From the IMG/VR virus record IMGVR_UViG_3300022752_000016: a stretch of 64,000 bases of DNA. One strand, written 5' to 3'. This document shows positions 51,728 through 64,000 of the stretch, piece after piece. Position numbers and translations under genes: made by a program. The notes beneath the pieces were generated by a model. That model had not been told where the DNA came from and did no database searches. It saw nothing but the letters and a program-made list of their open reading frames with translations. How positions within the stretch are numbered: position 1 is the stretch's first letter; each line of letters begins with the position of its first letter. This DNA comes from a virus. Taxonomy: Duplodnaviria > Caudoviricetes.

Positions 51728-54700
51728 ATGATTAGAGATGTTTTTTATTATGGCAAGAAGCCTAACATTCATCCAAGAGAAAGATTTGCTAAAAACCTTG
51801 AAGAAGCAAGAGAGTTATCAAATACAGAGCATTTTTGGATAATAAATGAATTTTGTGATTATAAAAATTTTGATTGGGATTTCGATTACGAATTTTTACC
51901 AGACGAGGATGTATGGGCGCAGGATCATATAAATATATGGCCAAGTTTATATCAAAAAGATAGTGGAACATGGTTAGTTCCAAATAATAATAGTTTAGTG
52001 AGAATTTACAGAAATGATGTACAACCTGTAGATAGAAAAATAATTAAAGATAATTGGATTATTTATTCACAAATAGACAGTAAAAAATTTGATTTAAAAT
52101 GGCATCCTGATCCACTTGATCCGCCCTTTATTTATGTATGGGGGAATAAATTTATACCAGCAGAACTGCAACCTACAATAGAATATTATACACCTAGTGC
52201 TGTTGAACGAAAATACATGGGTGAAGTTGAGGTATTACCACAAATGGAACGTTGGGTAATGGTTCAAGATATAACTGAGGATTTTGATTTAACTTGGAGA
52301 CCTGATCCAAGAGAACCTCCGTACATTTACGTTTGGGGAAACAAATATATACCTGGAGAGTTACAATCTACAATTGAATATCATACTCCTAATGCAATCA
52401 ATAAAAAATATATGGGTAATGCACCTGTTTTACCTGATAAAAATTGGAAAATTATACAGGAAATTGATAAAACTAAATTTGATTTATCTTGGAGACCTGA
52501 TCCACGTGAACCTCCATACATTTATACTTGGGGAAATAAGTTTATTCCTGCTGAAATAATGCCTACAATTCAATACTTATGTCCAAACGCTACTGAACAT
52601 AAGTACATGCAAGAACCATTAGAGGTATTACCTGAATATGAAAAATGGGTAGAAGTACAGGCTATCGATAAAACTAAATTTGATTTATCTTGGAGACCTG
52701 ATCCACGTGAACCTCCATATATTTACGTTTGGGGAAACAAATATATACCTGGTGAATTATTACCTACATTGCAATATAATTGTATAGGAGCAAAAGAATA
52801 CAAATATATGGGTGATGTTGAGGTTATTCCAGAACACGAAAAATGGGTAGAAGTACAGGCTATCGACAAAACAAAATTTGATTTATCTTGGAGACCTGAT
52901 CCACGTGAACCTCCATACATTTATACTTGGGGAAATAAATATATACCTGGTGAATTAATGCCAACTTTAGAATATAGATGTATTGGAGCAACAGAACGCA
53001 AATATATGGGTGATGTTGAGGTTATTCCAGAACACGAAAAATGGGTCGAAATTCAACTAATTGATAAGACAACATTTGACATGACATGGAGACCTGATCC
53101 AAGAGAACCTCCATATATTTACGTTTGGGGGAATAAGTTTATTCCTGCAGAATTAATGTCAACTTTAGAATATAGATGTATTGGAGCAAAAGAATACAAA
53201 TATATGGGTGATGTTGAGGTTATTCCAGAACACGATAAATGGGTCGAAGTGCAGTTAATTGATAAGACAAAATTTGACATGACATGGAGACCTGATCCAA
53301 GAGAACCTCCATATATTTACGTTTGGGGGAATAAGTTTATTCCTGCAGAATTAATGCCAACTTTAGAATATAGATGTATTGGAGCCACTGAGCGAAAATA
53401 TATGGGAAATATTGATGTATTGCCTGAGTTTAATAGATGGGTCGAAGTTCAAACTATTGATAAGACTAAATTTGATATGACATGGAGACCTGATCCAAGA
53501 GAACCACCTTATATCTATGTATGGGGAAACAAATATATACCAGGCGAATTAAAATCAACAATTGAATACCATACCCCTAATAGTACTGAACGTAAGTATA
53601 TGGGAGATGTTGATGTTTTACCAGAAACAGAACGTTGGAATATTGTTCAAAAACCTAAGGATTTTGATTTAACATGGAGACCTGACCCAAAAGAACCACC
53701 ATACATTTATGTATGGGGCAATAAATATATACCTGGGGAGATACAATCTACAATAGAATATCATACACCTGACGCTCAAGAAATAAAATATATGGGTGAC
53801 ATAGAAGTTGTACCATATTATGAACATTGGAATATTGTGCAAGAAGTCGGTGATGATTTTGATCTTTGTTGGAGACCTGATCCAAGAGAACCACCATACA
53901 TTTATGTATGGGGGAACAACTATATACCTGGCGAGGTTAAAGCTACAATTGAATATCATACACCTAATAGTATTGAACGCAAGTATATGGGTATTGCCAG
54001 TGTTAAACCTGACAAAAATTGGAAAATTACACAGGATATTGATATTGAAAAATTTGATTTATGTTGGAGACCTGATCCTAGGGAGCCTGCATACATTTAT
54101 ACTTGGGGTAATAAGTATGTAAGTGCTGAACTAGTACCAACCATTGAATATTATACTCCTAACGCCACTGAACGTAAGTATATGGGTGAAGTAGACGTTA
54201 TTCCTGAATTTGATCGTTGGGTAGAAGTACAACCAATTGACAAATCAACATTTGATATGACATGGAGACCTGATCCAAGAGAACCACCATACATTTATGT
54301 ATGGGGTAATAAACATATTCCCGCCGAACTAAAACCCACGCTAGAATATTATACTCCAAACGCAACAGATAGAAAATATATGGGTAATGTTGAAGTTTTA
54401 CCAATAAACGAAAATTGGAAAATTACCCAAGAAGCTATAAACTTTGATTACACATGGAGACCGGACCCAAGAGAACCTGATTATATCTATGTATGGGGTA
54501 ACAAGTATATACCTGGCGAGTTAAAACCTACAATTGAATACATTTGTCCTAACGCTATTGAAAAAAAGTATATGGGGAATGTTGAAGTAGCCTCTGAATG
54601 GGACAAATATAGAATACTGATCCCTGTTGATAAGAATAGTTTTGATTTTAGTTGGAGACCTGATCCAAGAGAGCCTCCCTATATTTACGTTTGGGGCAAT

Positions 54701-57556
54701 CAAACTAATAGTGCCACTATAGAACCTACGATAGAATATCATTGCACAGGTGCTGTTGAACGCAAATACATGGTTGACAGAGTAGCTACAACGTTACCAG
54801 ATATTGAAAAATTTAAAATTTTAATTTCAGTAAAAGATTTTGATTTTAGTTGGAGACCAGATCCTCATAGTCCTCCTTATATCTACGTGTTTGGTAACCA
54901 ATGGCATGATGCAATGACTGAACCTACAGTAGAATATCATGTACCTGGTGCGAAAGAAAAAAAATATATAACAGATATTATAGCGAAGGTAAGTCCTACA
55001 CAGGAAAATTGGAAAACACTTATCCCTGTTGTAGATTTTGATTATAGCTGGAGGCCTAACCCACACAGTACTCCATACATTTATGTATTTGGAAATCAAT
55101 GGAATCCTATTGAATTAGAGCATACAGTTGAATACCATACACCTGGGGCAAAAGACTACAAATATATAACAGATATTGTAGCAAATCTTAAACCAACTAA
55201 CACTGAAAAACATTGGAAAAGGTTGTTACCTGTTGAAAGTTTTGATTATAGTTGGAAACCTGATCCAAGAGAACCTGCATTAATATATGTATTTGGAAAT
55301 AAATGGAATGATTCTAAGACTGAGCCTACTATTGAATATCATTGTGAAGGTGCTACAGAACGAAAATACTTAGATTTTCCTGTAGCTAAACCCACAGTTG
55401 AATTTAAATATTGGTCCATATCAAATAATTACGATCTAGAATCATTTGATTTTAGTTGGAGACCTAATCCGCATAGTCCACCACAAATTTATCAATGGGA
55501 AAATAATGGTCCAAGATATAATGTACCAGGTGCTACAGACGTTGTATTAATGAAAAGAATTGATACTGACTATGCACCGAAAATTAATAAATATTTTATT
55601 AAAACTAACCTTACCGATTTGATTAGTGAACATCCAAATGAAGTATTTTGGGCTTTAAATCCTGATCTAAATTATGATAAGTTTGACTTTACATGGAAGC
55701 CTAATAAAGAAAATTTTACACACATAAATGTTTTTGGTAATGAATATAGTAAAAATACCCACACATATTATATAAACGGGCCAATGTATAACTTGGGATA
55801 TAGGCAATATAATTATATAAATAATCAAAAATTTAGTGGGGATACAAACCTTTCAATGTTTTTTATTGATAGGGGTAATGATTATAGTCAAAAAAGATTC
55901 GATGCACTTAAAACAAAGTACCCACAATTACAAAAAACAAGATTTCTAAATTCTTGGGTAGATACTATTAATCGTTGCACTCAAAAATCTTATACAAAGT
56001 TCCTTTGGGTTTTAAGTAGCGAATTAGATTATAGTGAATTTGAGTTTGACTTTTATCCTAGTCCATGGCAAGAAAAAATGGTACATGTGTTTGGTACACA
56101 ATGGAGTCATTGGGGTAATACATACCTAATAAACAAGGAAACATTTGCAAATGATACTAAGTATATAAAAATTATTGAACATTTGTCATGTTTAAATTTT
56201 GTCAAAACTAAACGTGCAAAAGCTGTGGACATTATTTATGATATTGTCTATATTGACCACAAAAATACAAAAGTGGATAGTAATAAATTTAAATATGTGA
56301 TTGAGTATGAGGATAATTATTATAAAACTTTTAAAAAATTAATTGATGTTTTACCTAAAAAGAAAGAGCATTATATTTGGATAATAAGTTCAATCTGTGA
56401 TTATACAAACTTTAATTTTACTTACATTTGTGACCCATTTGCTAAAGAACAATTACACGTTTTTCCAAGCGATAAACAAAAATATGGTGACACATTTTTT
56501 GTAGACGTTAATAATTTACGTGAACAAATTGAAAATATTGAAAAACTTAAAAATTTTACAAAAATAAATTTTAATAATCATCAAACAGTAAAAAGATTAG
56601 ATTGTCCTAAATTTGTAATAGAGGATGATACTTTTGTAAATTCAATTAATGTTGAATTTAATTTTCCCTATGCAAATTTTGTAACGGTAGATAATTGTAC
56701 ATTAAATGTTGTGGACGATGATCCAATCAATTTGTGGGAAGAAGAAACAAAAAATATTATAGTGCAAAGTACAGGTAATACAAATATTATTATACCCAAA
56801 GAAGTAAAGAAATATGTAAAAAAAGAATTGTATGATTATCCTTATATCACTAAACGTGATAAATTACAATCAAGTTTTCCATTAGATATTGTTTTTTTAA
56901 GTAATGGTGAAAAAAATGCTGATGCAAACTATGAACATCTATTATCTGTAATAAAAAATAAACCAAATAGAGTAATAAGAGTTGATGGTATTAATGGTAG
57001 AAAAAATGCAAATTACGCAGTTGCAGATATTAGTAATACTCCTTGGATGTTTGTAGTATTTGCAAAGTTAAAAGTAAAAGAAAACTTTGATTGGGATTGG
57101 CAACCTGATAGAATGCAATTACCAAAACATTATATTTTTTATGCTAGGAATCCTGTTAATGGTTTGTTTTACGGACACCAAGCAATGATAGCATGGAATA
57201 AAAATATAGTTTTACAAACACAAGGAGTAGACTTAGATTTTACAATGGAAGGTAACCATGAAGTTGTTAAGATAGATAGCGGAACACCTTATTATAATAC
57301 AGATGAATATAGCACATGGAGGACTGCTTTTAGAGAGGTTATAAAATTGAAGTATTACAACAATAAAGAAAGTCAGCATCGTTTAAAAGTATGGTCAAGT
57401 ATAGCAGAAGGTGATTTTGCCCAATTTAGTTTACAAGGAGCAAAACATGCTATAGATTACTTTAATGCGGTTGATGGTAATATTGATAAATTAAAATTAA
57501 GTTACGAATGGGCTTGGTGTAAAGAATATTTTCTTAAAAAGTATGATAGAATTTAA
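51728..57556 (+). CDS. 1,942-aa tandem-repeat protein with degenerate GT-A-like C-terminal modules
   Basis: 18 copies of FD.(S/T)WRPDPREPPYIYVWGNK. The C-terminus LDIVFLSNGE...RVDGING...WRTAFREVIKL parallels 37535..38497. Confidence 0.8.
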   Translation: MIRDVFYYGKKPNIHPRERFAKNLEEARELSNTEHFWIINEFCDYKNFDWDFDYEFLPDEDVWAQDHINIWPSLYQKDSGTWLVPNNNSLVRIYRNDVQPVDRKIIKDNWIIYSQIDSKKFDLKWHPDPLDPPFIYVWGNKFIPAELQPTIEYYTPSAVERKYMGEVEVLPQMERWVMVQDITEDFDLTWRPDPREPPYIYVWGNKYIPGELQSTIEYHTPNAINKKYMGNAPVLPDKNWKIIQEIDKTKFDLSWRPDPREPPYIYTWGNKFIPAEIMPTIQYLCPNATEHKYMQEPLEVLPEYEKWVEVQAIDKTKFDLSWRPDPREPPYIYVWGNKYIPGELLPTLQYNCIGAKEYKYMGDVEVIPEHEKWVEVQAIDKTKFDLSWRPDPREPPYIYTWGNKYIPGELMPTLEYRCIGATERKYMGDVEVIPEHEKWVEIQLIDKTTFDMTWRPDPREPPYIYVWGNKFIPAELMSTLEYRCIGAKEYKYMGDVEVIPEHDKWVEVQLIDKTKFDMTWRPDPREPPYIYVWGNKFIPAELMPTLEYRCIGATERKYMGNIDVLPEFNRWVEVQTIDKTKFDMTWRPDPREPPYIYVWGNKYIPGELKSTIEYHTPNSTERKYMGDVDVLPETERWNIVQKPKDFDLTWRPDPKEPPYIYVWGNKYIPGEIQSTIEYHTPDAQEIKYMGDIEVVPYYEHWNIVQEVGDDFDLCWRPDPREPPYIYVWGNNYIPGEVKATIEYHTPNSIERKYMGIASVKPDKNWKITQDIDIEKFDLCWRPDPREPAYIYTWGNKYVSAELVPTIEYYTPNATERKYMGEVDVIPEFDRWVEVQPIDKSTFDMTWRPDPREPPYIYVWGNKHIPAELKPTLEYYTPNATDRKYMGNVEVLPINENWKITQEAINFDYTWRPDPREPDYIYVWGNKYIPGELKPTIEYICPNAIEKKYMGNVEVASEWDKYRILIPVDKNSFDFSWRPDPREPPYIYVWGNQTNSATIEPTIEYHCTGAVERKYMVDRVATTLPDIEKFKILISVKDFDFSWRPDPHSPPYIYVFGNQWHDAMTEPTVEYHVPGAKEKKYITDIIAKVSPTQENWKTLIPVVDFDYSWRPNPHSTPYIYVFGNQWNPIELEHTVEYHTPGAKDYKYITDIVANLKPTNTEKHWKRLLPVESFDYSWKPDPREPALIYVFGNKWNDSKTEPTIEYHCEGATERKYLDFPVAKPTVEFKYWSISNNYDLESFDFSWRPNPHSPPQIYQWENNGPRYNVPGATDVVLMKRIDTDYAPKINKYFIKTNLTDLISEHPNEVFWALNPDLNYDKFDFTWKPNKENFTHINVFGNEYSKNTHTYYINGPMYNLGYRQYNYINNQKFSGDTNLSMFFIDRGNDYSQKRFDALKTKYPQLQKTRFLNSWVDTINRCTQKSYTKFLWVLSSELDYSEFEFDFYPSPWQEKMVHVFGTQWSHWGNTYLINKETFANDTKYIKIIEHLSCLNFVKTKRAKAVDIIYDIVYIDHKNTKVDSNKFKYVIEYEDNYYKTFKKLIDVLPKKKEHYIWIISSICDYTNFNFTYICDPFAKEQLHVFPSDKQKYGDTFFVDVNNLREQIENIEKLKNFTKINFNNHQTVKRLDCPKFVIEDDTFVNSINVEFNFPYANFVTVDNCTLNVVDDDPINLWEEETKNIIVQSTGNTNIIIPKEVKKYVKKELYDYPYITKRDKLQSSFPLDIVFLSNGEKNADANYEHLLSVIKNKPNRVIRVDGINGRKNANYAVADISNTPWMFVVFAKLKVKENFDWDWQPDRMQLPKHYIFYARNPVNGLFYGHQAMIAWNKNIVLQTQGVDLDFTMEGNHEVVKIDSGTPYYNTDEYSTWRTAFREVIKLKYYNNKESQHRLKVWSSIAEGDFAQFSLQGAKHAIDYFNAVDGNIDKLKLSYEWAWCKEYFLKKYDRI
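52050..55560 (+). repeat. Coding tandem array, 18 units of 192-204 bp (mode 198 bp / 66 aa)
   Basis: TGG of the W-x-P-D/N-P core at 52100, 52295, 52490, 52691, 52889, 53087, 53285, 53483, 53675, 53870, 54065, 54263, 54455, 54653, 54851, 55049, 55253 and 55457. Confidence 0.95.
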
Positions 57557-57561
57557 AAAAT

Positions 57562-57696
57562 ATGTTATTACTTTTTTCATCTCATTTAAATCATTCTATT
57601 TTACAAAATTTATCACAGGAAGAAAGATTTGTAGTTGCTTTTAATTTTTTTATGAAGGGAAATATAGGTACTAATGAATGGATGTTAAAACTATAA
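57562..57696 (+). pseudogene. C-terminal remnant of a 2OG-Fe(II) oxygenase (TIGR02466-like)
   Basis: MLLLFSSHLNHSILQNLSQEERFVVAFNFFMKGNIG matches the LxLFPSxLxHxVxxNxSxxxRxxxAFN tail. An in-frame TAG at 57547-57549 means the HxD half is absent. Confidence 0.65.
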
Positions 57697-57699
57697 ATA
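57692..57699 (+). promoter_or_regulatory. T4-type late promoter TATAAATA (tmRNA precursor)
   Basis: Exact consensus just upstream of the acceptor piece. Confidence 0.7.
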
Positions 57700-57709
57700 A
57701 AGAATAAAG

Positions 57710-57774
57710 AATTGTTGTATGAAGTTGAAGGAAAAGTGCTGCGGACGCGGGTTCGACTCCCGCCTGGTCCACCA
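57710..57774 (+). ncRNA. ssrA: Permuted tmRNA, acceptor piece (T arm, 3' acceptor strand, ACCA)
   Basis: GGAC-GCGGG-TTCGACT-CCCGC-CTGGTCC-A-CCA ends at 57774. The 5' boundary is approximate, just downstream of TATAAATA 57692-57699. Confidence 0.92.
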
Positions 57775-57813
57775 TAAGGAAATATCCATAAGGAAATATC
57801 CATAAGGAAATAT
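57772..57813 (+). repeat. Three tandem 14-bp copies of CCATAAGGAAATAT
   Basis: 57772-57785, 57786-57799 and 57800-57813; the first copy begins with the tmRNA CCA and the last abuts ATG 57814. Confidence 0.95.
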
Positions 57814-57999
57814 ATGAGAGTTACAAACACAGAATCAATTCAACTTACACCTAAAGATGGTAAATGGTATGCTATGCCAAATGACCAATACATTAGATGG
57901 AATTTTGATGAGAGAATTTGGGATTATATGATCACAAAAGAAGGGGACACAAAGCCTAGATTTTGGGATCAATTACCGGATGGTACGGTTTCCTTATGA
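57814..57999 (+). CDS. 61-aa Trp-rich protein encoded inside the tmRNA intervening segment
   Basis: SD TAAGGA upstream of ATG; the ORF fills the segment and its TGA ends 1 nt before tmRNA G1 (58001). Confidence 0.7.
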   Translation: MRVTNTESIQLTPKDGKWYAMPNDQYIRWNFDERIWDYMITKEGDTKPRFWDQLPDGTVSL

Positions 58000-58087
58000 T
58001 GGGCCAGACATGGTTTCGACGGGGTAAAGAGTACGGATATGGACAACACGGTAGGCGAAGACCGCAAATCTAGCAAAGCAAATAGAC

Positions 58088-58132
58088 GCAAATGACGACT
58101 ATTTTTATCAGGATCTCAAGCTAGCCGCTTGA
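58088..58132 (+). other. tmRNA tag reading frame ANDDYFYQDLKLAA*
   Basis: gca aat gac gac tat ttt tat cag gat ctc aag cta gcc gct tga; the stop lies in hairpin CTCAAGC/GCTTGAG. Confidence 0.92.
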
Positions 58133-58171
58133 GCCTGACGGGGTAGGAAAGACCTTGTAACCAAACAAACC

Positions 58172-58193
58172 TAGGCTCTACGGAGCCTATTTT
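58172..58193 (+). terminator. Hairpin/terminator at the end of the tmRNA coding piece
   Basis: TAGGCTC-TACG-GAGCCTA-TTTT (7-bp stem, C-UACG-G tetraloop). Confidence 0.75.
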
Positions 58194-58328
58194 ACCCAAT
58201 ATCTATAGACATTGCGTAAAAAAGTGTTATAGTTTGCACTAATACTTTAATTAATTAGGTTAGATTATATGCACTAAATATTAATCTACACCTGATTTTT
58301 ATCAGGTATTATTTTATAAGGAACTAGA

Positions 58329-59342
58329 ATGAAAAAACTTTTATTAGCGTCACTTATTGCAGGTGCTACATCAGTTGCAGTTGCACAAACAACTGTATAT
58401 GGTTTGGCTGATGCATATTATGGACATCAAACAAATGCAAAAAATAGCAATCAAGTAAATGCTGGTGGTATGACAACTAGTTACATTGGTATCAGTGCAT
58501 CTGAAAAAATTGGCGATCTACAAGCTAGAGCAGTATTAGAGACATTTTTGCGTCCTGATACCGCACAACAAGGTCGTTTTAATAATGATACTTTTTATGC
58601 AAGAAACGCATATGTTGCACTATCATCTAAAGCAGGTGAAGTACAACTTGGTCGTGTAACTACACCATACTTTATCTCAACAATTGCATTTAATGCATTA
58701 GGTGATAGCTTTGTATTCAGTCCAACAGTAACATCAAGGGTTGGAGTTAATAACTTTAATCTTGGTGGTGGTGGAAGTGATACAGGATGGAATAACTCAG
58801 TTTTAGTAAAAACTAGTATGGCTGGTTTAGCACTTACAGGTGTCTATAGTGCAGGAGTTACTGATGATAGCAACGCAAAATTATCAGGTAAAAGCGTTGG
58901 CGCCATGTACTTTCAAGGTCCAATTGGTTTAACTGCAACTTGGCAAGACGTAGAGCAAGGCGCAGGTAAAGCAAGTATGTCATCAACAATCGTTGGTGCA
59001 AGTTATGATCTTAAAGTAGCAAAGGTGTTTGCTCAACATGAGACTGTTAAAAACAGCGATAATGTAACAAAAGAAGATAGAGGTTATACAGTAGGCGCAA
59101 CAATGCCAATGGGTAAAAATACTCTAATGGCAAGCTATGCAAAGAAAGACCATGATTTCACAAATGGTAGAACTGCTGAAACAGCAAGCTGGGCAGTAGG
59201 TGTAAGCCATGCACTAAGCAAGCGTACTGATTTATATGCTGCTGTACGTGATACAAATTATACTAATGACGGTTTAAATAGAACAAATGCAAACTTCGTC
59301 GATACCCGTGTAACAGGTGTAGGCGTACGTCATCGTTTTTAA
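58329..59342 (+). CDS. Outer-membrane porin (Gram-negative/Neisseria-Burkholderia-type)
   Basis: Signal peptide MKKLLLASLIAGATSVAVA-Q; TVYGLADAY; GASYDLKVAK; LSKRTDLYA; C-terminal HRF (BAM-type Phe). Confidence 0.92.
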   Translation: MKKLLLASLIAGATSVAVAQTTVYGLADAYYGHQTNAKNSNQVNAGGMTTSYIGISASEKIGDLQARAVLETFLRPDTAQQGRFNNDTFYARNAYVALSSKAGEVQLGRVTTPYFISTIAFNALGDSFVFSPTVTSRVGVNNFNLGGGGSDTGWNNSVLVKTSMAGLALTGVYSAGVTDDSNAKLSGKSVGAMYFQGPIGLTATWQDVEQGAGKASMSSTIVGASYDLKVAKVFAQHETVKNSDNVTKEDRGYTVGATMPMGKNTLMASYAKKDHDFTNGRTAETASWAVGVSHALSKRTDLYAAVRDTNYTNDGLNRTNANFVDTRVTGVGVRHRF

Positions 59343-59364: not shown

Positions 59365-59388
59365 AAAGGCACATATTGTGCCTTTTTT
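59365..59388 (+). terminator. Intrinsic terminator after porin
   Basis: AAAGGCACA-TAT-TGTGCCTTT-TTT. Confidence 0.85.
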
Positions 59389-59439
59389 ATTTTGTGCTAA
59401 ATAAAACTATGAATAAAACTCTTATAGCATTAATGTTTT

Positions 59440-59461
59440 TGCCCGAAAGGGCATTTTTTTT
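59440..59461 (+). terminator. Intrinsic terminator immediately upstream of an RBS
   Basis: TGCCC-GAAA-GGGCA followed by 8 T, then GGAG at 59462-59465. Confidence 0.8.
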
Positions 59462-59472
59462 GGAGAAATATT

Positions 59473-59577
59473 ATGTCATGGTTTAGACACTTTAGACCCA
59501 AGCACCCACCTTTCCCACCGTATAAGCAACCTGTTCCTATACCAAAAAATAAGGAGCCAGTGAAACCTAAATCATAA
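59473..59577 (+). CDS. 34-aa Pro/Lys-rich peptide (MSWFRHFRPKHPPFPPYKQPVPIPKNKEPVKPKS)
   Basis: Translated by hand; SD GGAG 7 nt upstream; stop abuts the next late promoter. Confidence 0.65.
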   Translation: MSWFRHFRPKHPPFPPYKQPVPIPKNKEPVKPKS

Positions 59578-59580
59578 ATA
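59573..59580 (+). promoter_or_regulatory. Late promoter variant CATAAATA (NTase-kinase)
   Basis: One mismatch to consensus, 4 nt before ATG 59585. Confidence 0.6.
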
Positions 59581-59584
59581 CTTA

Positions 59585-61681
59585 ATGGACATTAAAGAAC
59601 TACACTCATTTAGATTAAGTGACGCAGTAAAATTTCAGGATAAACTTAACCCAAAATTATTCTTGGGAAACCGTTTAGATCCTGCTGTAAAAAATCAATT
59701 AATTACAATTGCTAAAGATTTTCTTACAGAATTAGGGATAGGTGATGTAAAAGTTAAAGATATAACAATATCAGGTAGCAATGCAGCATTTACTTATACA
59801 CCACATAGCGATTTAGACTTACACATAGTTGTTGATTATAATCAATTTTCCAATGATAGCGTTTACAAAGAATTGTTTAACGCTAAGAAAAATTTATACA
59901 ACGATAGTCATAACATTACAATACGTGGTATTCCAGTAGAAGTATATATGGAAGATAGCAATGAACCAGTCATTAGTGTTGGTGAATACAGTATACTAAA
60001 GGATAAATGGAATCAAATTCCAACTAAACGTAGAGCAAACTTTGATCAAACTGCCACTAAGGCGAAGTATGGTAAACTAAATGATTTTATACTAAGAGCA
60101 TTAAAAGAAAAAAGTAGCAAAAAGATAGCCAAAGCATTAAAAATAATTAAGCGTTACAGACAAGCAGGGTTAGATAAAGGTGGTGAGTTTAGTCCTGAAA
60201 ATTTAGCATACAAAGCTTTACGTAGTCAAAAAGCAATTGAAAAACTATATAAGTTGCGTGATGAATTACATAGTAAAGAATTAAGTATTGAAAACATGTA
60301 TCAGGAACAAAAGCTAAATCGATTCGATGAAGACATTCCAGTTCAAAAAGGACCAGCGCGGTTAAAAAGACAAAGTGAATTAGAAAAGACACAAGACGAA
60401 TTAGGATCAGGTTTTTTTGGTACAGTTTATGATGAACCAAAAAGTAAAACTGGTGTAGGCACTGCTAGAAAAGTTTCTACATTTGATAGAGATGAGATGA
60501 CTGCTGACGGGTATTATGCTTATATCAATAAGATTATTGATCTTAAAAATGAAACTAATAATCCATACTTACCACAAGTATATGATGCTAAAGTTGTAAA
60601 ACCAAAGTCAGTAGGAAGTGAGCCATACTTTGAATTAGAACTTGAAAAATTAAGTAAATGGGAAGATTTAAGTGGTAATCAATTACGAGCAATACTAGAA
60701 AAAATGCTTGATGAAAGTTTTGAAAATGAAAAGAAACTACAAGATGTTTTGAAATTTTTAGGGCATTCAGGTGCGTCAGATACGAGTGACGAATGGTTAA
60801 TGTATGTAATTTTATATTTTATTAGGCTTACAATTAAAAATCCAAACTTTAGTTTAATGGGTATGAAAATTCGTGACCCACAACTTCTTGAAGTCACTGA
60901 TATGTTAAGATATCTGTCTAAGTCAGGGTATGGTATGGACTTACATGATCAAAATATCATGGTAAGAAATAGTAAATATGGCCCACAATTAGTTATTACA
61001 GATCCTTTAAGCTTTGGTGAAACTAGTCAGATACGAAAATTTAAACAAGGCAATATGAAAATGGATGTAAGGGGTGTAACTATACCACCTAATTACATAA
61101 TTTATGACATACATGATAAAGATAGACCAGTATTGCGTGGCTATGGCAGTTACGAAGAAATCTACCAACAATTCATAGAATTAAAGAATAAAAAACCATA
61201 TAATGATTATGAAATAGCTCCAATGAATCAAAAAGCTTCGGATGAAATGGATGCGAAGCAAGCAAGTGTAAAAGCAAAGTATAAAGAAAAACCACCTGCA
61301 AATCCTAAATATCAGCTTAAACCAAAATATACTTATGCTGTTTATGATAAAGATAAAACAAGCAATATGCTAATTGGTTATGTTAATGCTAACCATGATT
61401 CTGAAGCATTGGGATTGGCAAGAAAAAAATTCCCCGATGTAAAAAATATTAATGTGTTGCCTGATTTACTTGGTGATCCAAATGATAAATTTGCTGGTAT
61501 GTTAGAAGAAGCATTGGGTGAAAGTGCCTCGGGATATATCCCAAGCAAAAAACAAGCTAATGACCCAAGATTTAAGACTGCCTTGACAGTAGACATAAAA
61601 CCCGATAGCATCCAAAAGAATGCCAAAGCTTTTGGGTTTAAAGTAAAAAGGTCTGGAATCCCACCCCTGCTAAGACCCTAA
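59585..61681 (+). CDS. Pol-beta-superfamily nucleotidyltransferase fused to a T7 gp0.7-like protein kinase domain
   Basis: ISGSNAAFTYTPHSDLDLHIV (GS...DxD). Kinase motifs LGSGFFGTVY, ARKV, LPQVYD, DLHDQNIM, ITDPLSF. Confidence 0.8.
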   Translation: MDIKELHSFRLSDAVKFQDKLNPKLFLGNRLDPAVKNQLITIAKDFLTELGIGDVKVKDITISGSNAAFTYTPHSDLDLHIVVDYNQFSNDSVYKELFNAKKNLYNDSHNITIRGIPVEVYMEDSNEPVISVGEYSILKDKWNQIPTKRRANFDQTATKAKYGKLNDFILRALKEKSSKKIAKALKIIKRYRQAGLDKGGEFSPENLAYKALRSQKAIEKLYKLRDELHSKELSIENMYQEQKLNRFDEDIPVQKGPARLKRQSELEKTQDELGSGFFGTVYDEPKSKTGVGTARKVSTFDRDEMTADGYYAYINKIIDLKNETNNPYLPQVYDAKVVKPKSVGSEPYFELELEKLSKWEDLSGNQLRAILEKMLDESFENEKKLQDVLKFLGHSGASDTSDEWLMYVILYFIRLTIKNPNFSLMGMKIRDPQLLEVTDMLRYLSKSGYGMDLHDQNIMVRNSKYGPQLVITDPLSFGETSQIRKFKQGNMKMDVRGVTIPPNYIIYDIHDKDRPVLRGYGSYEEIYQQFIELKNKKPYNDYEIAPMNQKASDEMDAKQASVKAKYKEKPPANPKYQLKPKYTYAVYDKDKTSNMLIGYVNANHDSEALGLARKKFPDVKNINVLPDLLGDPNDKFAGMLEEALGESASGYIPSKKQANDPRFKTALTVDIKPDSIQKNAKAFGFKVKRSGIPPLLRP

Positions 61682-63035: not shown

Positions 63036-64000
63036 ATGACTAAAGTTTCTGATAACCACACTGTAACTAGTGTTCAAGCACGTAAGGCTTTGCTTAAGGC
63101 TTTTGATGCTAAACGCCCCATTTTCTTGTGGGGTCCTCCCGGTATCGGTAAATCTGAGGTAGTTGCAGAGGTTACTGAGGAACTTGGCGGTTTTATGATT
63201 GATTTGCGTATGGCGCAAATGGAGCCTACTGACATTCGAGGCATTCCGTTCTTCAATCGTGACCTTAACAAAATGGATTGGGCTCCACCGATTGATCTTC
63301 CCGATGAGGAGCTTGCAAGTCAATATCCACTGATTGTGTTGTTCCTTGATGAAATGAACAGTGCACCGCCCGCAGTACAGGCTGCAGGTTATCAACTTGT
63401 TTTAAATCGCCGTGTGGGCAAGTATGTGTTACCTGACAATGTTGTGATTGTTGCGGCAGGTAATCGTGATAGCGACAAGGGTGTTACTTATCGTATGCCA
63501 ATGCCCCTTGCTAATCGTTTCATTCACCTTGAAATGCGAGCCGACTTTGCAAGTTGGCAGAACTGGGCAGTAAACAAAGGCATTCATAAAGATGTGGTTG
63601 GTTACTTGTCATTCAGTAAACAGGACTTGTACGAGTTTGATAACAAAAGTTCTAGCCGTGCATTTGCTACTCCGCGTAGTTGGGTCTTTGTTTCAGATTT
63701 ACTCAATGATGAGGAAAGCGATTACGATACCCTGTACAACTTGGTAGCAGGTAGTGTCGGTGACGGATTGGCTGTAAAGTTTATGGCACACCGTAAGGTT
63801 GCAGGTAGCATGCCTGAACCAAGTGACATTCTTAGCGGTAAAGTTAAGGATCTCAAAGTTAAAGAAATTAGTGCTATGTATTCGCTAACCATCTCAATGT
63901 GTTACGAATTGCGTGATGCATTGGATAACAAGAAAGTGGATAACAAGAAATTCCACGATATGGCAAACAATTTCTTTACTTACATTATGGCTAACTTTGA
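63036..64000 (+). CDS. MoxR-like AAA+ ATPase, 3'-truncated by the window (absent from the ORF track)
   Basis: SD AGGAG; MTKVSDNH...IFLWGPPGIGKSE (Walker A)...LFLDEMN (Walker B)...AAGNR...PLANRF (Arg finger). Confidence 0.92.
   Translation, partial: MTKVSDNHTVTSVQARKALLKAFDAKRPIFLWGPPGIGKSEVVAEVTEELGGFMIDLRMAQMEPTDIRGIPFFNRDLNKMDWAPPIDLPDEELASQYPLIVLFLDEMNSAPPAVQAAGYQLVLNRRVGKYVLPDNVVIVAAGNRDSDKGVTYRMPMPLANRFIHLEMRADFASWQNWAVNKGIHKDVVGYLSFSKQDLYEFDNKSSSRAFATPRSWVFVSDLLNDEESDYDTLYNLVAGSVGDGLAVKFMAHRKVAGSMPEPSDILSGKVKDLKVKEISAMYSLTISMCYELRDALDNKKVDNKKFHDMANNFFTYIMANF

Follow-up and report, generated by a model that had tools for sequence, protein, structure and literature searches.

A 698-residue protein, P0001, encoded by an uninterrupted open reading frame (ORF; 59585–61681, + strand, 698 codons plus stop) in a 64,000-nucleotide stretch of Caudoviricetes DNA (hereafter the window; from IMG/VR record IMGVR_UViG_3300022752_000016), carries a protein kinase of the phage T7 gp0.7 (T7K) type between an N-terminal nucleotidyltransferase (NTase) module and a short C-terminal tail. 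We found that P0001 belongs to a virus-only family in which the NTase module and the tail are constant and the cassettes between them are swappable. We put at roughly 0.55 the probability that this protein is an effector of the phage polyvalent type whose scaffold is a constant carrier, with late transcription and possible head loading and injection. The 137-kb record that contains the window is an estimated 40 % complete, which implies a jumbo phage of ~340 kb, and a scan of all of it found the family gene in one copy only. An earlier note on this DNA had proposed a fusion of an NTase with a gp0.7-like kinase, possibly a packaged polyprotein.

A homologous-protein search recovered more than 1400 proteins from metagenomes; over their first ~240 residues they are 65–90 % identical to P0001, and beyond that they differ. 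In P0001, the constant NTase module, consisting of a Pol-beta core and a helical domain, spans residues 1–245 (59585–60319, +), as delimited by phrog_36119, family identity, and an AlphaFold2 (AF2) model, and the family survey placed the constant tail at residues 647–698 (61523–61678, +), with the pattern SASGYIPS..NDPRFKTALTVD.KPDSI.KNAKAFG...R.GIPP. By BLAST, the tail (~52 residues) was present in 206 of 230 members, in 196 of them at the extreme C-terminus, with the consensus ..E-A-S-G-Y-I-P-S-x-K-x-K-N-D-P-R-F-K-T-A-L-T-V-D-V-K-P-D-S-I-K-K-N-A-K-A-F-..-S-R-A-G-I-P-P. Minimal members of 288–305 residues join the NTase straight to the tail, and others carry an insert of 50–850 residues; this comparison with orthologous NTases, which the earlier note had proposed, identifies the kinase as an insertion. 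Inserts named by Pfam include DUF5661 (15 of 75 members), DUF6934 (14 of 75), cytidine/dCMP deaminases (6), GNAT (6), and ART-PolyVal (5), as well as a second Pol-beta NTase and NT5C. Many cassettes have no Pfam name, among them DYDPNGPPPGPEF.., MQFAAEK.., and AFDQPYPLKW...

Pairs of family members are mosaic. P0121 is 90 % identical to P0001 in the NTase and 42 % in the kinase, P0002 and P0003 are 81–83 % identical in the NTase and 95 % in the kinase plus tail, and the orthologue in L003 is 76 % identical in the NTase and 98 % in the tail. These identities point to exchange of cassettes by recombination. Conservation of the tail lies at the amino-acid and not the DNA level: we rejected a role as a DNA-level recombination connector, because the same-codon fraction of the tail (0.24–0.67) is no higher than that of the NTase (0.39–0.59). 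In five complete relatives carrying the family gene (335–525 kb), the tail was confined to NTase ORFs, a distribution that also led us to reject the tail as a general packaging tag. The carrier (~295 residues) occurs once per genome among these five, except in the 525-kb genome, which has two paralogues. Strict association with the NTase and protein-level conservation together indicate that NTase and tail function as a single unit, which an insertion hot spot divides. AF2 confidence was low over the tail in models of both P0001 and a natural minimal relative, P0302, and a tblastn search for the tail in cultured phages returned no match. Cyanophage S-CRM01 has a distant homologue that lacks the tail and stops precisely at the end of the constant NTase module.

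The cassette of P0001 starts with a T7K-type kinase domain (residues 253–487; 60341–61045, +), delimited by PHROGs, profile alignment, AF2, and Foldseek. The motifs read earlier from the sequence are all present, namely LGSGFFGTVY (273–282), ARKV (294–297, including the reported RKV), LPQVYD (329–334), DLHDQNIM (452–459), and ITDPLSF (471–477), together spanning 60401–61015. In PHROGs, phrog_15752 (the T7 gp0.7 family) matched residues 273–486 with an E of 5.4e-9. A profile of 69 kinase homologues aligned by hhalign with residues 65–220 of T7 gp0.7 (sequence from NC_001604) at a probability of 97.6 % and an E of 4.5e-12, pairing LGSGFFGTVY with LGNGHFSAAY, LPQVYD with IPNVYD, DLHDQNIM with DMHSGNIM, and ITDPLSF with ITDPVSF, which is the correspondence that the note had given. 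These scores and paired motifs, far beyond chance, confirm the kinase observation. Residues G274xG276, K296, E354, D452xH454xxN457, and D473-P474 were invariant or nearly so in the 69 homologues. An AF2 model of residues 246–698 had pLDDT (predicted local distance difference test) values >90 over residues 253–480, and the top 50 Foldseek matches in the PDB were all eukaryote-like protein kinases (CDK12, DAPK1, MEK1, PINK1; probability 1.0, E ~2e-5), so that the domain is confidently modelled with a kinase fold. Among Pfam kinase models, only Pkinase matched, at an E of 0.11; Kinase-PolyVal (PF18762) gave no match to P0001 up to an E of 10, and its only matches, weak and sub-threshold, were to kinase 2 of P0005 and of P0121.

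Like T7 gp0.7, the P0001 kinase is of a compact family in which the G-loop, the Lys, the D-x-H-x-x-N motif, and DP(V/L) in place of DFG align, and its domain stops ~ten residues past ITDP, without the activation segment and distal C-lobe, as expected for the T7K type. There are also differences. T7 gp0.7 stands alone, whereas the P0001 kinase is embedded mid-way in a 698-residue NTase protein; identity over the aligned core is ~23 %; T7K has a DPV motif in place of DFG (PMC13645617), whereas P0001 has DPL (D473-P474-L475), with Leu as the third residue; and T7 gene 0.7 is early, whereas the P0001 gene belongs to a T4-like jumbo phage and follows a late-type box. The hhalign match stops at T7 residue 220, and the C-terminal shutoff (SO)/DNA-binding domain of the T7 protein is absent from P0001, where two small α/β domains follow the kinase instead. 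Absence of the SO domain leaves membership in the T7K kinase-domain family intact, because jumbophage T7K homologues, which were left uncharacterised, have likewise lost it and conserve the third DPV residue less well (PMC13645617). By profile, then, the kinase is a member of the T7K kinase-domain family.

The first small domain (β-β-α-β(-α); residues 504–566; 61094–61282, +) was assigned from AF2 secondary structure with pLDDT values of 63–82, and the second (β-β-α-β; residues 582–626; 61328–61462, +) from an AF2 model with values of 84–94. These are the further small domains noticed earlier, to which the 52-residue conserved tail can be added. A search of the Atlas gave no informative fold match for either, although the second weakly resembles PaaB in structure. 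In P0005 and P0121, the kinase and both of these domains were inherited together, so that kinase and small domains travel as one cassette, and the Glu-containing linker that was thought to part them does not do so: FGETS (477–481), considered as a linker or cut site, was rejected since it is not conserved (FGQIS and FGSQ in relatives) and marks no boundary. A search of 1.8 billion representatives with residues 250–500 returned 696 relatives, nearly all stand-alone proteins of 210–260 residues, with fusions rare. Within the family, the kinase cassette is limited to P0001–P0005 and P0121, and a search of the five complete relatives for T7K-type kinases, stand-alone ones included, found none, the profile matching only the tail. 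Some polypeptides contain two T7K-type kinase domains: P0005 and P0121 have the order NT5C, kinase 1, small domains, kinase 2, and P0122 and P0123 have tandem kinases without an NTase.

The NTase motifs seen earlier are likewise in place: SGSNAA at residues 63–68 (59771–59788) and DLDLH at residues 76–80 (59810–59824). The catalytic residues (59774–59941, +), G64-S65 (59774–59779), D76 and D78 (59810–59818), and E119 (59939–59941), are intact and were invariant in an alignment of 46 members, as confirmed with 75, and the same is true of the helical-domain motif RYRQAGL..GGEF.PENLA.K.LR. The PHROGs family phrog_36119 matched residues 15–234 with an E of 1.4e-41. NTP_transf_2 (PF01909) matched residues 56–98 below its gathering threshold in Pfam (17.4 bits vs a cut-off of 21; E 0.006), and assignment to the Pol-beta superfamily is based on the motif and the predicted fold and not on the Pfam threshold. 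We modelled the fold with AF2 on P0302 (298 residues), which had an overall pLDDT of 67, values of 70–89 across the NTase core and helical domain, and values <50 in the C-terminal 65. For this model, Foldseek ranked ANT(9)/AadA (E 3e-4), CD-NTases, FAM46/TENT5, and MNT highest, with low template-modelling (TM) scores of 0.2–0.26. By VIA, the NTase core matched the minimal NTases 1ylq and 2rff and FAM46 with Z scores of ~6.0–6.6; a wide VIA search was swamped by generic helical-bundle matches to residues 153–242.

Searches with a PDB sequence profile, NCBIfam, and PADLOC placed the NTase in no known family, returning only sub-threshold matches to MntA, DrrA, 2rff, and PDC-S09, and in the ESM Atlas its family consists of virus-only clusters of hypothetical proteins. 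The module shares the hG[GS]...DxD...E core with protein-AMPylating and minimal Pol-beta NTases (the antitoxin MntA and the N-domain of DrrA/SidM) and with ANT(9)/AadA, has weak sequence matches to MntA, DrrA, and 2rff, and resembles ANT/AadA in its two-domain layout of NTase plus helical bundle. It differs in that all of these matches fall below family thresholds and phrog_36119 is virus-only and uncharacterised. From its residues, the NTase is apparently an active Pol-beta enzyme of an uncharacterised viral family, and we would assign it any specific substrate only with low confidence. Taken together, the domain identities and the family architecture are very probably correct as described.

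P0001 may be viewed as a variation on the known themes of polyvalent proteins and T7 kinase. Packaging in capsids has been predicted for polyvalent proteins whose domains include ART, kinase, GNAT, and NTase (Iyer, Burroughs, Anand, de Souza, Aravind 2017, PMC5512222), and P0001, in which at least two unrelated conflict-type domains (NTase plus kinase) share one phage polypeptide, fits the definition of such a protein. The resemblance extends to what the family encodes (ART-PolyVal, GNAT, kinase, and NTase) and to its cassette-like variability. By contrast, the kinase clade of the published proteins, Kinase-PolyVal (PF18762), is another one, and Pol-beta NTases were described there as minimal, ArdC-N-fused, and confined to conjugative-element proteins (PMC5512222). 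A further difference is that the variable part is internal here, between two constant parts; Pfam detected no MPTase, MuF, DarA-N, or similar hub domain in P0001 or 75 family members. T7K itself is hyperpromiscuous and disarms diverse bacterial defence systems by pervasive phosphorylation (PMC13645617, 2026 Nature), and on that analogy the P0001 kinase is probably an active, host-directed enzyme of takeover or anti-defence.

Several features of the family are consistent with proteolytic processing at module edges. First, P0001 starts with MDIKE (59585–59599, +), a candidate cleavage site that follows the family pattern M-x-[IL]-K-E and precedes L6; M1 and L6 are invariant and E5 is conserved in at least 90 % of members, and the start of T4 Alt, MELITELFDED, resembles the family M-x-[IL]-K-E-L. 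Second, in the junction MLEEALGE (residues 639–646; 61499–61522, +), immediately N-terminal to the tail, three [LM]-x-E motifs overlap. Among 142 distinct junctions, the residues preceding SGYIP were V/I/L/M at −4 in 73 %, E at −2 in 73 %, and A at −1 in 89 %, and a [LIVM]xE motif lay 0–3 residues before SGYIP in 133, compared with a background of 1.6 % per position. Third, the left edge of the kinase cassette in P0001, F-D-E↓D-I-P-V (residues 247–253; 60323–60343, +; the arrow marks the edge), follows the pattern [FIV]-[DE]-E↓D-I-P-V-(Q/T)-x-G-P, which is kept in six proteins (P0001–P0005 and P0121) behind three upstream contexts (NTase, DUF5661/GNAT, and NT5C). The recurrent cassettes AFDQPYPLKW.. 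and ..MQFAAEK.. also begin after [ILV]xE, and 113 of 379 homology breakpoints carried the motif, compared with 72 ± 7 at random positions. Two of the three Glu-containing linkers of the earlier note thus stood, FDEDI (247–251) as a conserved cassette edge and LEEALGES (640–647) as the tail junction. In P0001, the [LIVM]xE motifs in flexible regions are I-K-E at residues 3–5 and the M-L-E-E-A-L-G-E cluster at 639–646; F-D-E at 247–249 is the cassette edge.

Because the record of this phage is a fragment (~40 % complete) and does not contain the gp21 and gp23 genes, we read the protease and the capsid site in the complete relatives. All five had a Peptidase_S77 protein (T4 gp21 type) above the cut-off and a Gp23 capsid protein, the latter with ..KKQLLAE↓SSAGTTTAGN.. 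at the place of the T4 LTE↓A maturation site. The N-terminus of this capsid protein, MSKVLLESRWDETKEALLEGLKG..VILENTKKQLLAE↓SSAG (L098–L102, from relatives G001–G005), resembles the T4 gp23 propeptide in having four L-x-E motifs among residues 1–45. T4 gp21 trims small N-terminal peptides off Alt and the internal proteins (PMC9958956), and the head proteases of T4, phiKZ, and SPN3US all cut after Glu (PMC5694885). Protease, capsid site, and boundary motifs would fit processing at module edges, and the proposal that the protein is cut after Glu is consistent with these data at that level. If the motifs were cut, the predicted products would be the NTase (6–249), the kinase with both small domains (250–646), and the tail, and not one fragment per domain.

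For delivery, T4 Alt is the closest functional analogy, without homology to P0001. The two share a T4-like phage background, a late-type box, a host-modifying enzyme, an I-x-E motif followed by Leu (MDIKE↓L vs MELITE↓L), and a gp21-type protease, seen here in the relatives. They differ in that there is no sequence homology and in that the putative sites of P0001 are also internal and C-terminal. P0001 also differs from the T4 internal proteins IPI–III, whose 10-residue N-terminal capsid-targeting sequence was not seen.

Late transcription is suggested by a T4-late-promoter-like box, CATAAATAC (59573–59581, +), which sits 12 nt ahead of the ATG, where it shares bases with the stop codon of a 34-residue Pro-rich ORF. 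Relatives with other upstream genes have a box at the same distance: CATAAATAC in L003, CTAAATAC in L005, and GATAAATAC in L010 and L011. Of 35 starts in the window, 7 have ATAAATA in the 30 nt upstream, among them those of two baseplate-block genes and a structural-protein-like gene; with only 26 copies on the + strand of the 64 kb, the expectation for these 1050 nt is ~0.4. The T4-type late promoter is TATAAATA, and a TATAAATA box at 57692 precedes a transfer-messenger RNA (tmRNA) gene. Boxes of the form (T/G)ATAAATA 9–30 nt before gene starts (6628, 7113, 33076, 35299, 43254, and 50227, including the carbamoyltransferase and baseplate-block genes) are candidate late promoters, unusually near the ATG. 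The earlier description of the gene as late-made is consistent with these boxes, and we consider the chances of late expression evenly balanced.

In the mechanism that we favor, the carrier is a Pol-beta NTase, catalytically intact by its sequence, with a helical domain and the 52-residue conserved peptide, and the NTase–tail linker is a hot spot at which unrelated enzyme cassettes are inserted and exchanged by recombination. The slot in this phage holds a compact T7K-type Ser/Thr kinase plus two small α/β domains. Domain identities, intact catalytic residues, family architecture, and mosaic cassettes are the parts of this mechanism that the sequence analysis establishes. The kinase would most likely phosphorylate host proteins broadly, in takeover or in disarming defences, as for T7K, and the NTase would add a nucleotide to some substrate. 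With moderate confidence, transcription would be late, from the CATAAATAC box. More tentatively, the protein might be loaded into the prohead, trimmed by a gp21-type protease after I-K-E5, F-D-E249, and L-G-E646, and injected with the DNA like T4 Alt, which would supply a ready-made kinase at entry. Packaging, proteolytic release, and injection are less likely than not and stand below late expression in our estimate. Also doubtful, and slightly more so, is the fuller proposal that a large clade of freshwater T4-like jumbo phages uses the NTase plus tail as a dedicated cargo chassis, in which the N-terminal M-x-I-K-E and the tail would be loading/propeptide signals removed by the gp21-type protease and the slot cassettes would be packaged, freed at [VIL]xE, and injected.

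The genes around the ORF bear on these proposals. The window has a guanine-plus-cytosine (GC) content of ~30 % and every gene is on the + strand. T4-type baseplate hub and wedge genes lie upstream of the NTase–kinase ORF, as do radical-SAM and carbamoyltransferase genes. Closer to the ORF on the 5′ side is the permuted tmRNA (57713–58132; ARAGORN 57682–58223; Rfam RF04321, 115 bits; tag ANDDYFYQDLKLAA), followed by a Porin_4 gene (58329–59342; E 1.3e-40) of Gram-negative type with a signal-peptide-like start and locally GC-richer DNA. A pattern scan of genome contigs found no close cellular relative of this porin. Two hairpin-plus-T-run terminators (~59365–59390 and ~59440–59461) follow the porin gene, and the 34-residue Pro-rich ORF (MSWFRHFRPKHPPFPPYKQPVPIPKNKEPVKPKS; 59473–59577) lies directly upstream of the NTase–kinase ORF; porin and Pro-rich ORF are both kept upstream of the orthologues in L003 and L004. 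Downstream, small ORFs are followed, a few kb 3′ of the family gene and at 63036–63998 in the window, by a MoxR-type AAA ATPase and then a DUF2201 (VWA/metallopeptidase-like) gene. Two synteny groups can be distinguished. In the window, L003, L009, and L010, MoxR-AAA/DUF2201 lies downstream of the family gene, and the latter three also have a permuted tmRNA upstream, with other tag peptides (ANDNSTMELALAA, ANDNYYNEELRLAA); in L005, L011, and L012, ClpB lies upstream and ferritin downstream, with no tmRNA nearby. Among these neighbours (tmRNA, porin, MoxR-AAA/DUF2201, or ClpB/ferritin), we found no portal, terminase, or head gene.

Two large ORFs farther upstream were also observed. A single ORF of 7256 residues (10504–32274), immediately 3′ of the baseplate wedge gene, presumably encodes a giant fibre or adhesin. 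An ORF of 1942 residues (51728–57556) contains >20 copies of a ~65-residue repeat with the pattern ..FD.(S/T)WRPDPREPPYIYVWGNK(Y/F)IP.E..TIEY..P.A.E.KYMG.., after which its C-terminal half is free of repeats, and had weak partial matches to Pfam and nothing more.

A number of observations weigh against a late-expressed, head-loaded effector. The ORF sits among auxiliary genes, with the tmRNA and porin 5′ and the MoxR-type AAA ATPase 3′, outside any head module. The promoter box starts with C instead of T, and AT-rich intergenic DNA inflates the box counts, which keeps late expression at the level of inference. Enrichment of the motif at homology breakpoints is modest and BLAST ends are fuzzy; the P3 residue at the left cassette edge of P0001 is F and not L/I/V; the T4 gp21 consensus that the [VIL]-x-E boundaries resemble is reportedly [L/I]-x-E (Black et al. 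1994), and the papers cited above on head proteases state only that the cut follows Glu; and the N-terminal element is unlike the 10-residue capsid-targeting sequence of the T4 internal proteins, comprising only 5 residues. The tail is coupled to the NTase and might be nothing other than a portion of that enzyme. Finally, since the NTase has no confident match to a characterised family, protein NMPylation, the activity proposed earlier, is a guess.

Several of these points fit a cytoplasmic multi-enzyme with the same domains that is never packaged. The fusion would then just co-express host-modifying or nucleotide-metabolising activities, [VIL]xE would be a feature of linkers or recombination joints, and the tail would be an extension of the NTase. 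The 1:1 occurrence of tail and NTase in the five complete genomes, selection on the tail at the amino-acid level, like that on the NTase itself, the auxiliary and non-structural gene neighbours, and the position of the tail-less S-CRM01 homologue beside primase and nrdAB all favor this explanation. However, it leaves unexplained why unrelated cassettes start after [VIL]xE, why the ART-PolyVal, GNAT, kinase, and NTase repertoire mirrors that of polyvalent proteins predicted to be packaged, and why the gene has a late-type box. We therefore regard it as a serious alternative that is clearly less probable than a polyvalent-type effector on a constant carrier.

Improbable, in our view, is a role in translation takeover, in which the NTase would act on RNA 3′ ends, repairing or tailing tmRNA and tRNAs in a CCA-like manner, and the kinase, instead of being anti-defence cargo, would tune the translation apparatus, in the way that initiation and elongation factors are acted on by the T7 kinase. 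The permuted tmRNA upstream of the gene in the window, L003, L009, and L010, the presence of the poly(A)-polymerase-like FAM46/TENT5 among the fold matches, and a weak MTPAP-like match of P0053 suggested this idea, but L005, L011, and L012 carry the gene with no tmRNA nearby, the fold matches are weak (TM 0.2–0.26), and neither a class-II CCA-adding signature nor an RNA-binding domain was detected. Very improbable is a metabolic or signal-interfering protein, with an ANT/AadA-like NTase or a CD-NTase-type nucleotide-signal synthase or decoy and a kinase also acting on small molecules, for although ANT(9)/AadA (E 3e-4) and CdnE/CdnD are the best Foldseek NTase matches, a cyanophage homologue is annotated as an aminoglycoside nucleotidyltransferase, and other family cassettes are nucleotide enzymes (deaminase, NT5C), the TM scores are just 0.2–0.26 at 10–15 % identity and the kinase belongs specifically to the T7K protein-kinase family, with protein kinases as its fold matches.

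In a very abundant virus-only family whose ends are constant and whose middle varies, the T7K-type kinase of P0001 is one of the cassettes that can be swapped. Were the carrier to travel in virions as cargo, a kinase of this sort could be brought in ready-made by giant phages, so that it would act before any phage gene is transcribed, and the slot would be a guide to new counter-defence enzymes, given that DUF5661, DUF6934, and several unnamed cassettes have no known function. If the cargo-chassis proposal is true, the more than 1400 variants would amount to nature's own collection of enzymes for anti-defence or takeover that are packaged in advance. Whether or not the protein is packaged, the layout of constant ends and variable middle is a clean natural experiment in modular effector exchange among uncultured lake phages.

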